Notes under the pieces: model-generated
Seen by the model: the letters and a program-made list of their open reading frames with translations, nothing else
The model's database searches: none
Told to the model about the DNA's origin: nothing
Shown: positions 9,206 to 13,956 of the stretch, one piece after another
Layout: each line of letters opens with the position of its first letter
How positions within the stretch are numbered: position 1 is the stretch's first letter
Translations under genes and position numbers: made by a program
From: Escherichia coli
Lineage (GTDB): Bacteria > Pseudomonadota > Gammaproteobacteria > Enterobacterales > Enterobacteriaceae
Direction: 5' to 3' (one strand)
NCBI RefSeq assembly: GCF_030384885.1
Contig: NZ_CP128613.1
Length of the DNA stretch: 64,000 nucleotides

Positions 9206-10498
9206 TTACCTGTTTTCCCACAATCTCAGCATCGTTTTGTGCTCGTCTGTCAGCACAATCTGCGGGCGTCTGACGCGAATATAGTTAATCGCTTCATCAA
9301 CGGTTTTACAGTGTCCGTAGCATAACAGCCATGCGGCCACCACCAGCGCACTGCGCGATAATCCCAACGCGCAATGGACCAGAATGCTGCCTTGCTCTTT
9401 GCGTAATGTTTCCAGCATCGCCACGGCCTGTCGGAGCTCCCCCTCTTCCGGAACCACCAGATCCAACATCGGTACACAAAAATAGAGTCGATCTTTTGTC
9501 GCGCGTCCGCGAGGGAATTCAAAGGTGACGTCCAGAACTGCATTCTGTGCCGGAATATGTCGTGGAAACGTCCCTAAATAAACACCCGCAGTAATTTCGC
9601 TCACCGGCTCCAGCCGACGACAAAACCAGTGCATCGATATCCACATACCGATGCGCCAGGGCAACGTCAGCCAGTAAACGGCAGGCGGGAGTTTCCCCTG
9701 ACTATCTTTCCCTGTTGTTATCGCGCCAAGCCCACCGTACCCACGGCTAATAATGAGTAGCGATAATACTGGCCAACATAACCAGACTGACCACCGTAAC
9801 TGATTCATCATCATTAGCGTCATCAATACTATGCACGAACACGCGCCTACGACATATGGCAGTGCTATTTTGATTCGACGTTGATCAGGTATCTGGTAGT
9901 TCCAGCGACGGTCGACGGGCACCATCCAGTCAATCAACATACCTACCGCCAGCCCTGTGATGACATCAATAAAATGATGCTGCCAGGTCGTCAGCGTAGA
10001 AATCGCGATGAGTAAAAACCATCCGCCACAGACTTTACGCCACCTCACAGCCAGATGCTGACGATAGTGACACCAAAGTAGCCAGCAGAGAATAATATGC
10101 AGCGAAGGGGACTGGTTATAAGGCAGATCAAACAGTTCAAGTTGCGAAAATAGCCATCCCGTCACCCCACTCACTTCAGGGCGGATAAAACTAAACTTCA
10201 GCGGATAGAGCAAAAAACCGCAACAGGCCATTACCGTTGCCAGAATAAGCCGGTGGACCAGTCGGCGCTGTTCGAATGTCGAGCGACAAACGAACAGCGA
10301 AAATCCATATAAAAGATCCAGACTCCAGTAAGGAACAATAGTCCAGGGAAGAAAAGGGATCGCCGTTTCCCAACCGAATACCTGACTGGGGATATCATGG
10401 TTGTTAAGATCCTGAATCGCGGTGAACTGATTAAGAAATCCATATGTGAAGAAGAAAAACGGAGCCAGCAACAATAACCAGCTAGCTCCTTGTAGCAA
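9206..10498 (-). CDS. ynbD: dual-specificity phosphatase-like membrane protein YnbD (start uncertain)
   Basis: Open frame 9206..10594 with phosphatase P-loop [11 protein letters not shown] and hydrophobic N-terminal half; overlaps ynbC 3' end. Start placed at TTG 10498 to give the 430 aa recalled for K-12; ATG alternatives at 10561 and 10594. Confidence 0.75.
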
Positions 10499-10511
10499 TA
10501 CGCTCCGGCGT

Positions 10512-12269
10512 TCAGTGTTCACGACGCACCGCCATCGAAACCGTAAAAATGCCCCACTCATCAATCCGTTGTGTGCATTTATCAAATCCGGCATTACGCA
10601 CGAGCGAATCCATCTCCCCTTGCGAACGCACGCGCATTACCCACGGTTTACCATCTTTATGACTGGTTAACACCCCGGCAATCAGCTCCAGTTGTGGGTG
10701 CCACGGCTGCCCGGTGTAGATGAGAATGCCACCCGGTTCGATGGCATTGGCAAGACCAGCGAGGGAGTTTTTTACCTGCTCGTTTTCGGGAAAAAGCTCA
10801 TACAGGCCAGAGACAATCGCCAACGTAGGCCGCGGAGTTAACGCGCTGAGTTCTGCCGTATTAAACGCATCGCCCTGTTCAAAACGCGCCCGCCCAGACA
10901 TTCCCTTTTGGGCAATCATCTCTTGCCCCTGTGCAACATTTAACTCACTGTAATCACGTAACAAAATATCGCTTACGGCAGGCTCGTTTGCCAGCGCATC
11001 CAGTACATAGCGCCCATGCCCTGCGGCAATGTCAACCACGCGGACGGCTAAACCTTTGGCGTGGAGATCGGCAACGGCTTGTTTAATCAGCATTTGTAAA
11101 TGGGCTTTGCGCTGGCGAATACCGCGCCAGCCAACACCGTTCAGGTAGATTTTGTCGATAAAACGCCCGAATGCGTTACTGCCTTGCGGTTGATTTTGAT
11201 AAACATAATCCAGCGAACTGCCTGAATCAAAGCCGGTGCTCATTCCGAGATGCAGGCCCGCAGATTGCGCCCCGAACAGTTTCATCGCCTTTCGCATAAA
11301 GCGATACGCCAAATCAATCCGCGATAATGGCACGGGTCCACCAGAAAGGAGCCGCCATCGATCCGCAGATGGTCCTGTGCGGTCTTCATGCTGATAATCA
11401 AATTTTTGCGACTTGTTAGCATATAAGCGACTAATAAAGCTTTGCATTTTTTCAAATGCCTGCGCCCTGTTCTCTTCACCCAACGTGTCGTGATAAAAGC
11501 CCGGCAGCAGATGCAGCTCTTTCAGAGGGCTACGTAATCTCTGATAAAAATCAATCTGCGGTTGGCGACGCACCACATAGTCATCGCCCGATATCAGAAG
11601 TTGCGTGGGGAGCGTAATCGCCGCCGCATCGCTAACAATACGTTCAGACGTTTTATAGAGATCGAGCAAGATATTGACGGCAATCGCCCGTGTGATCAGC
11701 GGATCATTATTGAAACTCGCTACCCGTTCCCAATCGTGGGTCAAATAGCGTCCTTTCACATAGGAATTAATAAAAAACAGACCACGCAGACGATGCCATA
11801 ACGCCAGCGCAGGACGTGCCAGCGGCACATACAATTTAACCTTAAAGGCCGGAGAAGCCAGCACCAGCCCGCGAATAGCAGGCGCATAATCATGAACCCA
11901 TGTGGCAACCAGCACTGCGCCGACGCTTTGCGCGATCACAACCACCTCTTCCAGCCCGACCTGGCTGTCGCTGGCAGCAAAACGGACAAATTCATCGACA
12001 TCCTGCACTGAACGCGCAAGAGATGGGCTATAACCACGCGGCCCCGAAGTTTGTCCATGCCCTCGGGCATCCCAGGCATAAAAAGCAGTATCTGGCATCG
12101 CCAGTTCATCAACGATATGTTGTAGACGACCAGAATGTTCATGACCGCGATGAAATAAGACGATGACCTTTTTCACCCCTGGCTGTAAAGCGGGCCAGTG
12201 CCGATAAAACAACGCTGTATTATCACTGGTGGTAAAAAAATGTTCCCCAGGGATGCGTGAATTTTCCAT
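10512..12269 (-). CDS. ynbC: alpha/beta-hydrolase plus methyltransferase-like fusion protein YnbC
   Basis: 585-aa ORF; hydrolase-like N-terminal half (IAQSVGAVL) and C-terminal half with SAM-methyltransferase-like [11 protein letters not shown]. Confidence 0.85.
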
Positions 12270-12284
12270 TTTCTCTATTTTCCT

Positions 12285-13181
12285 TCAGTAACAGCAGTAG
12301 CGAATAAAATAAAAAAATACCGGAGCGGTGAAAATTAATGAGTCAATCCTGTCAAGGAGTCCGCCATGTCCTGGTAATAGTTTTCCGCTATCTTTAACAC
12401 CAATATCTCGTTTGATGGCTGACATCACTACATCGCCGCAAAAACCACTAATACCAATTAACAAACCCGCTAATAATGCCTGTAATGTATCTAGCGGTGT
12501 CAGCAACGGTCCAATAATCAGTGACGCAATCATGGTGGTGATTACGCCGCCCATCAGACCTTCCAATGTTTTTCCCGGGCTGACTTTAGGGACCACTTTT
12601 CTTCTGCCGCAGGATTTTCCCCATAAATACTGTGCAATATCGTTTGACTCGGTTAATGCCAAAAGAAATAACACCAGTAACGCCCCGCCCTGGATATTTG
12701 TGGTTGGCAACATTAATAACCAGGCGGCATGACTCAAGGCGAAAACGGTCATTATCCAGCCCCAAAAAATGGCGCTCACGGTATGCAGAAAACCGGAGGG
12801 GTCACCCACAAAAACTCGCCAGGTGGCTAATATCAGAAACCCAGCCAAAGGTATAAATAACAGAAACAGCTCAAAGCAATTAAAACCGATAAGCAAATAG
12901 TTAAGAGGAATAACCCAATATAACCAACGCGGAAAATGTACGAATACAAGCGTACAATATTCTTTCAATGCCATAAAACTTATCAGCGCAAAAAACGTCA
13001 ATGTCATCAAGCGTGGACCTGAAATCACTAGTGAAAAACAAATAACGATGCTCCACCAGGTACGAATACGTAATGTAACTTCATCTCCTTTTCTCTCCGG
13101 TAACCGCCATACCAGAAAACGGTTTATCAGCGTTGCTAAAATTAACAACACGAAAAGTATTGCCAGAGATTTTTCCAGCAT
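12285..13181 (-). CDS. ynbB: CDP-diglyceride synthetase-like membrane protein YnbB
   Basis: 298-aa polytopic membrane ORF; its start overlaps the ynbA stop (operon arrangement). Confidence 0.85.
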   Translation of the reverse strand: [298 protein letters not shown]

Positions 13182-13786
13182 TACTTTTCAGCGCTCATAA
13201 GGAGCACGCTTCGACAACGATTAATCGCAGTCCAGAGAAGCAGAATTGAAGCAATGCTCCATAAAAGATTATTCCATTGCATCCACTGGGGATAAATGGC
13301 AACGGCCAGCCCCCACAAACCAAATATTAACGCACGATCGCTTTTGCCAAATGGACCGGCATAACTGCGAATACCGTTAATCGTCTGCGCGAGTAAACCG
13401 CAAAACTCAGTCAATATGGTGCAAAATAACATGAGTATTACGAGTGATGCGTTACTTTCCGGTAAAAATAAAAACGGTAAATAAAGCGCAATATCGGAAA
13501 TAACATCGCCAGTTTCATTCAAAATCGCCCCCAGACGTGTTTGCTGATTGCACTCACGCGCCATCATGCCATCCAGCGCATTGAGTGCCATACGGACAAA
13601 AAGCACGATGGGCAATAGCAAAAAGAGGATGGGTCGTGCCACCAACATCAACAGCAATCCGATAAGAAGAGAAAGCGCCAGTGCCGCAAGAGTGATGTGA
13701 TTCGCTGTAACGTGGTGCTTATAAAGCCAAAACATCGTCGGCCTTAACAGCGACTGAAAGAGCGGTTTTATCTGGTAGAGCGTCAT
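13181..13786 (-). CDS. ynbA: CDP-alcohol phosphatidyltransferase family protein YnbA
   Basis: Membrane ORF with CDP-alcohol phosphatidyltransferase-like motif (DGMMARE...G...ETGD); the open frame extends two codons further, to 13792. Confidence 0.85.
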   Translation of the reverse strand: MTLYQIKPLFQSLLRPTMFWLYKHHVTANHITLAALALSLLIGLLLMLVARPILFLLLPIVLFVRMALNALDGMMARECNQQTRLGAILNETGDVISDIALYLPFLFLPESNASLVILMLFCTILTEFCGLLAQTINGIRSYAGPFGKSDRALIFGLWGLAVAIYPQWMQWNNLLWSIASILLLWTAINRCRSVLLMSAEK

Positions 13787-13956
13787 TATCAATCCTTGAT
13801 AATTCGGTTTGCGCTATGGTGCATCAATTCCCCTGACGGAGATATCGCAACACGCCGCTTCATTAAAAATTCAGAATATATCAAGGTATTGGGGACTCAC
13901 TGCCAGGAATGATTATCCCCAATTAATCAAATGGTTAAGAAAAATTACGTTGTGGA

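Follow-up and report, generated by a model that had tools for sequence, protein, structure and literature searches.

The ynbABCD operon of Escherichia coli may be a reduced form of a proteobacterial gene cluster for a dedicated glycerophospholipid

Among the closest described counterparts of the genes considered here is the inositol-lipid cluster BT_1522-BT_1526 of Bacteroides thetaiotaomicron (Heaver et al. 2022, PMC9246714), where a phosphatidylinositol-phosphate (PIP) synthase (BT_1523), a phosphatase (BT_1525) and an Aur1-like inositol phosphorylceramide (IPC) synthase (BT_1522) are encoded together. In E. coli the phospholipid pathways are regarded as fully mapped, and yet the ynbABCD genes, at positions 9206-13786 of a 64,000-nucleotide stretch of E. 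coli chromosome (contig NZ_CP128613.1, below called the window), encode a second CDP-diacylglycerol (CDP-DAG) synthase, YnbB. They also encode YnbA, an inositol-phosphate-clade transferase whose active site is of an unprecedented variant form, and what appears to be a two-faced enzyme joining a lipid-type phosphatase to a sphingomyelin-synthase-like domain, YnbD. The fourth product, YnbC, is a hydrolase-methyltransferase fusion. The ynb genes and their domain annotations were known before, and YnbB is the only enzyme of the cluster that has been studied. Our literature search found no paper naming ynbABCD, treating the operon as a unit or describing a cluster with this enzyme set. We consider it an even call that ynbABCD is a single operon and the four-gene form of a six-gene cluster, conserved in Proteobacteria, that makes and then processes a dedicated glycerophospholipid outside the housekeeping route. 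New in this analysis are an ancestral unit of six genes that became reduced in Escherichia, the fixed Asn-Asn signature of a CDP-alcohol transferase, the transferase-like fold and predicted outward orientation of the PAP2 domain of YnbD, and the parallel with PIP-dependent head-group transfer pathways.

The four genes run in the same direction, as the initial annotation of this DNA had stated, and are intact open reading frames (ORFs) on the minus strand (Table 1). The initial annotation had placed the operon end at 13792, which is an in-frame TTG that precedes the annotated ATG by two codons; ynbA as annotated extends to 13786. Positions 9000-14000 are 100% identical to NZ_CP027579.1 (E. coli 2013C-4282), where RefSeq annotates ynbA, ynbB, ynbC and ynbD. 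These are not chance ORFs, because each has hundreds of homologues and dN/dS values against K-12 are 0.13-0.40. The genes had also been called overlapping. This holds for ynbA/ynbB, with a 1-nt overlap in TAATG (spacing -1), and for ynbC/ynbD, with an 11-nt overlap, GTGAACACTGA (spacing -11), but ynbB and ynbC are separated by a 15-nt spacer containing AGGA (spacing +15). In a consensus scan of 8300-14300, 3 promoter-like sites were seen where 8.4 were expected, and 11 terminator-like sites where 7.8 were expected. There was no excess of either inside the operon; the scan is otherwise uninformative. Operon calls in databases are cited in PMC2435150. The ynbA promoter, with a start mapped by 5'-RACE, is activated by BglJ-RcsB from a binding site centred 65-68 bp upstream of the start (PMC3950696). 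Together, the junction spacing, the scan for internal signals, the database calls and the single mapped upstream promoter support ynbABCD as one operon. The BglJ-RcsB site could not be placed by its core WWTTCYKA: chance alone would give 35.5 matches in the window and 33 were seen, two of them in the ydbD-ynbA spacer.

The YnbA family forms 161 clusters (50% identity, E<=1e-30), and a scan of one genome per species found a YnbA relative in at least 594 species; the same module is shared by proteobacterial species in the hundreds, some of them associated with plants or animals. Eighty loci from different species were kept, and the queries run against their ORFs were the E. coli domains and a PlsC-like acyltransferase seen in metagenomic contexts. 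They span Enterobacterales, Pasteurellaceae, Pseudomonas, Variovorax, Chromobacterium, Rhizobium, Phyllobacterium, Brucella, Neisseria, Gilliamella, Campylobacter, Sulfurospirillum, methanotrophs and a few metagenome-assembled genomes of Bacteroidetes. Genes for YnbA, YnbB, the acyltransferase, YnbC and YnbD were found together at 28 loci, YnbA, YnbB and the acyltransferase only at 23, and YnbA, YnbC and YnbD only at 11. In Hafnia, Citrobacter, Serratia, Budvicia and Mangrovibacter, which are nearest to E. coli, the order A-B-acyltransferase-C-D is followed by a gene for a membrane protein of about 135 residues. In Salmonella bongori the chromosomal site is the same, between ydbL and azoR-hrpA, and it holds exactly these six genes. 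Only A-B-C-D is present in E. coli and in a divergent Escherichia sp., and the acyltransferase and the small membrane protein are found nowhere in the window. Six genes at the S. bongori site and four in Escherichia indicate that the E. coli operon is a derived, reduced version. The acyltransferase and YnbB genes, a supply module, are always adjacent, and so are those of YnbC and YnbD, a processing module. Natural fusions of YnbA with YnbC (P0180, on one metagenomic contig) and with the acyltransferase (P0197) tie both modules to YnbA. In at least 80 species, the order, spacing and fusion of genes link the ynb genes functionally. The idea, in the initial annotation, of a pathway to a phospholipid-like or CDP-activated product is supported by the domains and by the CDP-DAG activity of YnbB, but was incomplete in that the conserved unit has six genes and not four.

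The small protein lies 3' of ynbD in many genera and between ynbD and the acyltransferase gene in Pseudomonas and Variovorax; examples are L010 15177-15584, L091 13200-13604, L088 ~13780-14199 and L033 6239-6640. By the look of its sequence it is a three-helix membrane protein, and it has no match in Pfam or NCBIfam. Clustering of the flanking ORFs of the 80 loci left the acyltransferase and this small protein as the only genuine recurrent families. Antisense or off-frame shadows of conserved genes made up the largest clusters, and the rest were clade-specific, with neither a conserved gene for head-group supply nor a conserved glycosyltransferase among them. Since no conserved gene supplies the head group, the compound that provides it (X-P in the route below) should be a common metabolite. 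In a variant cluster at L008 (AP023054.1, 8001-12933) the order is ynbA-ynbC-patatin-like phospholipase-short-chain dehydrogenase without ynbD, the patatin phospholipase taking the place of the phosphatase/PAP2 protein, and a short CTP_transf_1 gene (232 aa) lies on the opposite strand. In a single case (L005, 5144-6169) an LPG_synthase_TM gene, coding for an MprF-type membrane domain, stands two genes upstream of the YnbA::acyltransferase fusion; the Bacteroides inositol-lipid cluster has an LPG_synthase_TM-type neighbour too (PMC9246714).

The enzyme set would fit the following route. YnbB would make CDP-DAG from phosphatidate and CTP, which is its published activity, and would pass the CDP-DAG on to YnbA instead of into the bulk pool. 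In most other bacteria a PlsC-like acyltransferase encoded beside ynbB, lost in Escherichia, would feed YnbB with dedicated phosphatidate. YnbA would then join CDP-DAG to X-P, an alcohol that is anionic and probably phosphorylated, with phosphatidyl-X-phosphate and CMP as products. The cytoplasmic dual-specificity phosphatase (DSP) domain of YnbD would remove the phosphate to leave phosphatidyl-X, much as PTPMT1 acts on phosphatidylglycerophosphate (PGP) and a PgpA-type enzyme on PIP in Bacteroides. The periplasm-facing PAP2 domain of YnbD may pass the head group to another acceptor, or cleave the lipid. In the weakest step, cytoplasmic YnbC, next to YnbA, might deacylate and methylate the lipid or a fragment of it. 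The steps assigned to YnbA and YnbD are proposed from family, motifs, fold, topology and the Bacteroides precedent. Such a route mirrors the order of PIP synthase, phosphatase and IPC synthase in B. thetaiotaomicron. It differs in that the ynb cluster has no inositol-phosphate synthase, in that its phosphatase is of the DSP fold rather than PgpA-type and is fused to a PAP2 domain, and in that YnbA has Asn at two metal positions and lacks the Arg for inositol phosphate. The ynb cluster also adds a dedicated CDP-diacylglycerol synthase (CDS), an acyltransferase and a lipase-methyltransferase.

YnbA, the central enzyme of the cluster, is a membrane protein of the CDP-alcohol phosphotransferase family, as initially annotated (Pfam CDP-OH_P_transf, PF01066, E 3.6e-9, 37.6 bits with the cut-off at 22, match to positions 3-148 of the 152 in the profile). 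Its best NCBIfam matches are archaetidylinositol-phosphate (AIP) synthase, with 73 bits against a cut-off of 180, and PIP synthase, with 50 bits against 170. These two models are the top matches for all 77 family members analysed, with every score below the curated cut-offs (NF045883, NF040950; reached by 0/77). Matches, likewise below cut-off, were also seen to the BT_1523-type (34 members), DIPP-synthase (22), PgsA (39) and PssA (21) models. The closest solved structure is the PIP synthase PgsA1 of Mycobacterium tuberculosis (Rv2612c, 6h53, E 4.7e-8). PgsA1 and the archaeal AIP synthases are the best relatives over the full length and share with YnbA the DG..AR..G core, the fourth Asp and two basic residues at positions that bind phosphate in PgsA1; they differ from it in the first and third Asp, which are Asn in YnbA, and in Arg94, which is Val. 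An old annotation of YnbA as a diacylglycerol cholinephosphotransferase was rejected, because the family groups with CDP-DAG-using enzymes of the inositol-phosphate type; CPT/CEPT structures match only half of the protein at E 0.002-0.03.

The active site of YnbA deserves closer description. The canonical motif of CDP-alcohol transferases, D1xxD2GxxAR..GxxxD3xxxD4, is quoted in PMC9246714, and in PgsA1 the four Asp residues D68, D71, D89 and D93 bind two Mg ions (PMC6506517). The canonical set of four is not present in YnbA, whose signature NxxDGxxAR-x8-GxxxNxxxD reads N69xxD72G..AR-x8-G-xxx-N90-xxx-D94 with Asn at the first and third positions. D72 and D94, corresponding to PgsA1 D71 (second metal-binding Asp) and D93 (catalytic base), are kept. 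N69 and N90 replace the first and third metal-binding Asp, D68 and D89. The N..N variant was found in 111 of the 112 family representatives that carry the core motif, so it is a fixed family trait and not a decay mutation. The alignment of 77 sequences shows no variation at N90, D72, D94 and D98, and conservation of at least 90% at N69. V95 stands where PgsA1 has R94, which is required for inositol phosphate (PMC6506517). The family consensus there is GDVxSD, with no Arg next to D4. In the motif GPFGKSDRA the residues K148, D150 and R151 are invariant, and the basic K148 and R151 align with R152 and R155 of PgsA1, which bind the phosphate of inositol phosphate (PMC6506517). It is likely that this motif forms an anion (phosphate) binding site for the acceptor. 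An invariant R190 lies near the position of PgsA1 R195, a third basic residue contacting the phosphate of the acceptor, the alignment stopping before R195. From these residues we infer that the acceptor is anionic and probably phosphorylated, but other than inositol phosphate, and that the metal chemistry may be altered.

YnbB, a paralogue of the essential E. coli enzyme CdsA, belongs to the CDS family over its full length (Pfam CTP_transf_1, PF01148, E 8e-69, 232.9 bits), so that domain searches, the check named in the initial annotation, back both of its lipid-enzyme assignments. A motif search found in it the CDS signature, which we take to be the PROSITE pattern S-x-[LIVMF]-K-R-x4-K-D...H-G-G-x-x-D-R-x-D. 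The CdsA equivalog model NF008635 covers only the C-terminal half, with 106 bits against a cut-off of 385. According to PMC7018664, citing Sato et al. 2019, YnbB forms CDP-DAG in vitro. YnbB alone is non-essential, does not complement a cdsA deletion and does not sustain bulk phospholipid synthesis; the cdsA knockout is rescued by YnbB only together with yeast Tam41 (PMC6362211; PMC7018664). YnbB thus resembles CdsA in Pfam family, signature and reported in vitro activity, and differs from it in that the similarity is limited to the C-terminal half, that it cannot replace CdsA in bulk synthesis, that it is translationally coupled to YnbA, and that in other taxa its gene adjoins that of the PlsC-like acyltransferase. 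An enzyme that makes CDP-DAG yet cannot feed bulk synthesis would fit channelling to a coupled partner, YnbA. The initial annotation, which is essentially what the RefSeq product names already imply, omitted this earlier work on YnbB.

In that work YnbB is linked to the glycolipid MPIase. According to the proposal of the Nishiyama laboratory, YnbB would serve a back-up route in which CDP-DAG and then GlcNAc-PP-diacylglycerol (GlcNAc-PP-DAG) are made, and the other ynb genes would be accessory. Overproduction of YnbB raises MPIase about as much as overproduction of CdsA (PMC6362211; PMC7018664), which speaks for the proposal, as does the joint rescue with Tam41. A review also reports ynbB as cold-induced. 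However, deletion of ynbB alone leaves the MPIase level and growth unchanged. In addition, ynb DNA is entirely absent from 804 of 5426 complete E. coli genomes, which sits badly with the description of MPIase as essential. The cluster also occurs in Pseudomonas, Rhizobium, Neisseria, Campylobacter and others, while the MPIase glycan resembles enterobacterial common antigen, a polymer of Enterobacterales (PMC8609368). The absence of a glycosyltransferase from the conserved cluster is a further difficulty. Our literature search found that the MPIase papers never consider ynbA, ynbC or ynbD, and the partner enzymes are left unexplained. We regard this explanation of the locus as unlikely. A related thought is that YnbA is a phosphate-accepting transferase instead of an alcohol transferase and joins CDP-DAG to a sugar-1-phosphate or another phosphomonoester, yielding a head group linked through DAG-pyrophosphate, for example GlcNAc-PP-DAG, and that the cluster runs a DAG-based carrier-lipid cycle. 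Asn in place of two Asp throughout the family would cut negative charge and admit an anionic nucleophile, and the PAP2 domain of YnbD might then recycle or transfer from the pyrophosphate lipid, like PAP2 enzymes acting on undecaprenyl pyrophosphate. GlcNAc-PP-DAG is the proposed first MPIase intermediate, which has no known dedicated enzyme. We hold this reading to be a long shot.

Regarding YnbD, the description as a membrane dual-specificity phosphatase was right for its C-terminal part; the PAP2-superfamily domain in the first ~300 residues had been missed. The DSP assignment is borne out by the DSPc profile (PF00782, residues 338-461, 92 bits, E 3e-26), a CX5R P-loop (residues 382-392, window 9347-9379), a general-acid Asp and the DSP fold. 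In 37 YnbD orthologues PSLH142, S175-x6-H182-H-x2-D186, D354 and C384-x5-R390 are invariant. The N-terminal domain has the PAP2 core helical fold, and each PAP2 model is matched at E<=0.01 by 30 of the 37 orthologues (best 1.6e-10). The catalytic motifs C2 (PSGH) and C3 (SRx5Hx3D) are recognisable, C3 aligning to human PLPP1 SRVSDYKHHWSD. The C1 motif Kx6RP is not: its Lys is unconserved, its Arg partly conserved and its Pro invariant. The C3 Arg, which together with the C1 Lys clamps phosphate in PAP2 phosphatases, is replaced by Val or Thr. Strongly alternating loop charges predict that the N-terminus and the DSP domain are cytoplasmic and the PAP2 motifs periplasmic. Structural comparison of the membrane domain gave SMSr (14.7) and Aur1 (13.3) ahead of LpxE (11.6) and PgpB of E. 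coli and Bacillus subtilis (11.5, 11.2). With SMSr (8ijr) and Aur1 (9ivc), 191-205 residues are aligned, and these enzymes have, like YnbD, the conserved His-His-Asp set without the C1 Lys or C3 Arg of phosphatases. They differ from it by a sequence identity of 11-13% and by the fusion of YnbD to a cytoplasmic DSP phosphatase. We know of no ceramide pathway in E. coli. The membrane domain of YnbD appears closer to SMSr and Aur1, both head-group transferases, than to PAP2 phosphatases. This agrees with published complementation data: YnbD, previously noted as a fourth putative PAP2 protein of E. coli, complements upon overexpression neither a temperature-sensitive pgpA pgpB pgpC strain nor C55-PP phosphatase mutants (PMC7413402). 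The DSP domain matched MKP-2 (19.6) and PTPMT1 with phosphatidylinositol 5-phosphate (18.6). PTPMT1 (3rgq) is a mitochondrial DSP-fold PGP phosphatase, but its likeness was dropped as an argument for a lipid substrate, since protein dual-specificity phosphatases score the same or better.

These neighbours bring up another explanation, a redundant route to anionic phospholipid. Here YnbB would act as CdsA, YnbA would be a PgsA-like PGP synthase (or make cardiolipin as a CDP-DAG-type synthase), and YnbD would dephosphorylate PGP in the manner of PTPMT1 or PgpB. Such a route could draw on the weak PgsA-model matches in 39 of the 77 YnbA-family members and on PTPMT1 and PgpB as structural neighbours of the two YnbD domains. 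Glycerol-3-phosphate, moreover, is a universal metabolite, which fits the absence of a supply gene. The failure of overexpressed ynbD to complement (PMC7413402) and that of YnbB to complement a cdsA deletion count against it. YnbA scores 28.7 bits against the PgsA cut-off of 109, the inositol-phosphate clade being the better fit, and YnbC and the variant active site are left unexplained. For us this is a very unlikely explanation.

YnbC was described at the outset as a hydrolase-methyltransferase fusion, and both domains were recovered with high scores (Table 1). The protein has neither a signal peptide nor a transmembrane segment. Its hydrolase domain appears to be of the monoacylglycerol-lipase or lysophospholipase type, the best matches in the Protein Data Bank (PDB) being monoglyceride lipase of M. 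tuberculosis (Rv0183, 6eic, 1e-15) and human MGLL (6e-11). It shares with them a Ser elbow and candidate His and Asp motifs; by motif search D230 (GDDY) and H260 (FYHD) are candidates for the acid and base of the triad. Unlike in these lipases, the nucleophile elbow is AQS115VG, with Ala for the first Gly, instead of GHSMG, and the domain is fused to a Methyltransf_20 domain, a family with no characterised member. The methyltransferase domain has an invariant S-adenosylmethionine (SAM) motif, DIAAGHG (residues 413-419), and a mean column identity of 64% among 41 diverse sequences. Its AlphaFold2 model (pLDDT 93) has alternating strands and helices, a class I fold with a helical cap. Foldseek placed it nearest to 3ocj (TM-score 0.63) and then to small-molecule O-, C- and N-methyltransferases (TM-score ~0.5), the top matches all being SAM methyltransferases. 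No sequence relative of this domain was found in the PDB, and a literature search found no paper mentioning Methyltransf_20 or PF12147. Deducing the methyl acceptor from the fold was given up, as 3ocj is uncharacterised and the other neighbours are generic small-molecule enzymes. In a transposon mutant of ynbC polyphosphate builds up; this phenotype resembles a generic stress response.

Several points weigh against a dedicated lipid pathway. No product has been seen, and the present evidence does not identify the head group X. Inositol phosphate is an unlikely acceptor because PgsA1 R94 is Val in YnbA, and we know of no inositol-phosphate synthase in E. coli. With Asn for two of the four metal-binding Asp, the chemistry of YnbA could differ from that of a standard CDP-alcohol transferase. 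The E. coli YnbD sequence scores 22.8 bits with PAP2_3 (PF14378) and 18.3 with PAP2 (PF01569) against gathering scores of ~27, the similarity of its DSP fold cannot separate lipid from protein phosphatases, and the modelled fold of the YnbC methyltransferase does not constrain its role. At the 23 loci with YnbA, YnbB and the acyltransferase that lack YnbC and YnbD, the phosphatase step is either unneeded or performed by another enzyme. Finally, the E. coli cluster lacks two conserved genes, is under relaxed constraint and is missing from 15% of genomes.

This last point makes functional decay in Escherichia a serious possibility. The pathway may have been broken by loss of the acyltransferase and the small protein, leaving a remnant under weak or residual selection with no specific product. 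Both lost genes are present at the syntenic S. bongori site and absent in E. coli and Escherichia sp. The dN/dS values of the ynb genes are 5- to 20-fold above those of the flanking genes (0.01-0.06). The genomes without ynb DNA make up 15% of the total, so the operon is dispensable, and ~340 of the 5426 (about 6%) carry partial copies, including a ynbA'-'ynbC deletion pseudogene and IS1 insertions. The activator needed by the ynbA promoter is itself silent in laboratory strains. On the other hand, neither the window nor K-12 shows a break in any of the four ORFs, every catalytic residue invariant in the families is kept, and dN/dS is well below 1. The 11 loci of other genera with YnbA, YnbC and YnbD and the 23 with YnbA, YnbB and the acyltransferase suggest that sub-modules function alone. 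E. coli has other acyltransferases as well, namely PlsC, YihG and Aas. On balance a remnant with no specific product seems quite unlikely to us, slightly more so than the MPIase back-up route.

If the dedicated pathway exists and delivers a distinct lipid, or transfers a head group to an envelope acceptor, envelope modification would gain a new class, switched on only by particular stress signals (BglJ-RcsB, and reportedly cold and acid). Such a pathway would also reframe the YnbB/MPIase literature, where ynbB has been studied apart from its operon partners, and it bears on the enzymology of MPIase. The copy in E. coli may be defunct in part. To search for the product it is better to start from the clusters of six genes in S. 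bongori, Hafnia or Citrobacter than from the reduced E. coli version.

Table 1. Features of the ynbABCD locus, in window coordinates
Feature	Position	Strand	Description
ynbA	13181-13786	-	201 aa, ATG start; ribosome-binding site AAGGA 7 nt upstream
ynbB	12285-13181	-	298 aa; start codon shares a base with the ynbA stop (TAATG)
ynbC	10512-12269	-	585 aa
ynbD	9206-10522	-	438 aa, GTG start in RefSeq; maximal ORF to 10594
ydbD-ynbA intergenic region with ynbA promoter	13787-13956	-	170 nt, AT-rich; promoter from PMC3950696
YnbA catalytic signature, residues 69-98	13493-13582	-	NALDGMMAREcnqqtrlGailNetgDvisD; register from PgsA1 alignment
YnbA motif GPFGKSDRA, residues 144-152	13331-13357	-	K148, D150, R151 invariant; aligned to PgsA1 R152/R155
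ynbC N-terminal alpha/beta hydrolase domain	11454-12269	-	Hydrolase_4 (PF12146), residues 32-266, 228 bits, E 1.3e-67
ynbC C-terminal SAM methyltransferase domain	10512-11456	-	Methyltransf_20 (PF12147), residues 275-582, 503.8 bits, E 2e-151
ynbD N-terminal PAP2-superfamily membrane domain	9623-10522	-	8 transmembrane helices; C2 FDxPxNQxPSLH142; C3 S175-x6-H182-H-x2-D186; C1 degenerate
ynbD C-terminal cytoplasmic DSP domain	9206-9622	-	P-loop VHC384ALGLSR390SA; general acid D354
Perfect 10-bp inverted repeat	9168-9195	.	ATGTGGACTG / 8-nt loop / CAGTCCACAT; between the convergent stops of ynbD (9206) and azoR (9152)

The convergent stops of ynbD and azoR are 53 nt apart, with the 10-bp hairpin inside the gap. 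The RNA of 9155-9210 folds with -19.3 kcal/mol (z -3.4), and none of 200 shuffled sequences was equally stable. Both strands lack a U-tract at this hairpin, and it was not among the sites called by the consensus terminator scan. It is likely a bidirectional transcription stop of the kind without a U-tract. A mobile island as the nature of the ynb region was rejected: there is no integrase, tRNA or repeats, and the same site is occupied in S. bongori.

Among E. coli genomes the ydbD-ynbABCD block (9206-16269) is polymorphic for presence or absence. Strain Eco-15 has pdxI directly after azoR, the whole block being missing. The ydbD gene (13957-16269; RefSeq start 16263) codes for 770 aa by the ORF listing and is annotated as a DUF2773-containing bactofilin, with a Pfam match in the last 81 residues only and a GC content falling to 39-45%. 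It is absent between pdxI and ynbA in the divergent Escherichia sp. (L092) and in S. bongori (L091), and therefore appears to be a later insertion beside the operon. Only 2 of 5417 genomes match 9000-14000 at >=99%, which suggests that the strain comes from an uncommon lineage. The hrpA gene (4444-8346) has 92.9% DNA identity to K-12 and a dS of 0.35, whereas dS is 0.06-0.18 for ydcF, azoR and the ynb genes; the higher value suggests recombination or an imported hrpA allele. A large BigA-like autotransporter gene beside pdxI is intact in the strain of the window (L001; from ~17400 onward on the minus strand, a coordinate derived from L001 14396), and its K-12 counterpart (L090 14395-17001) is annotated as a pseudogene without the N-terminus.

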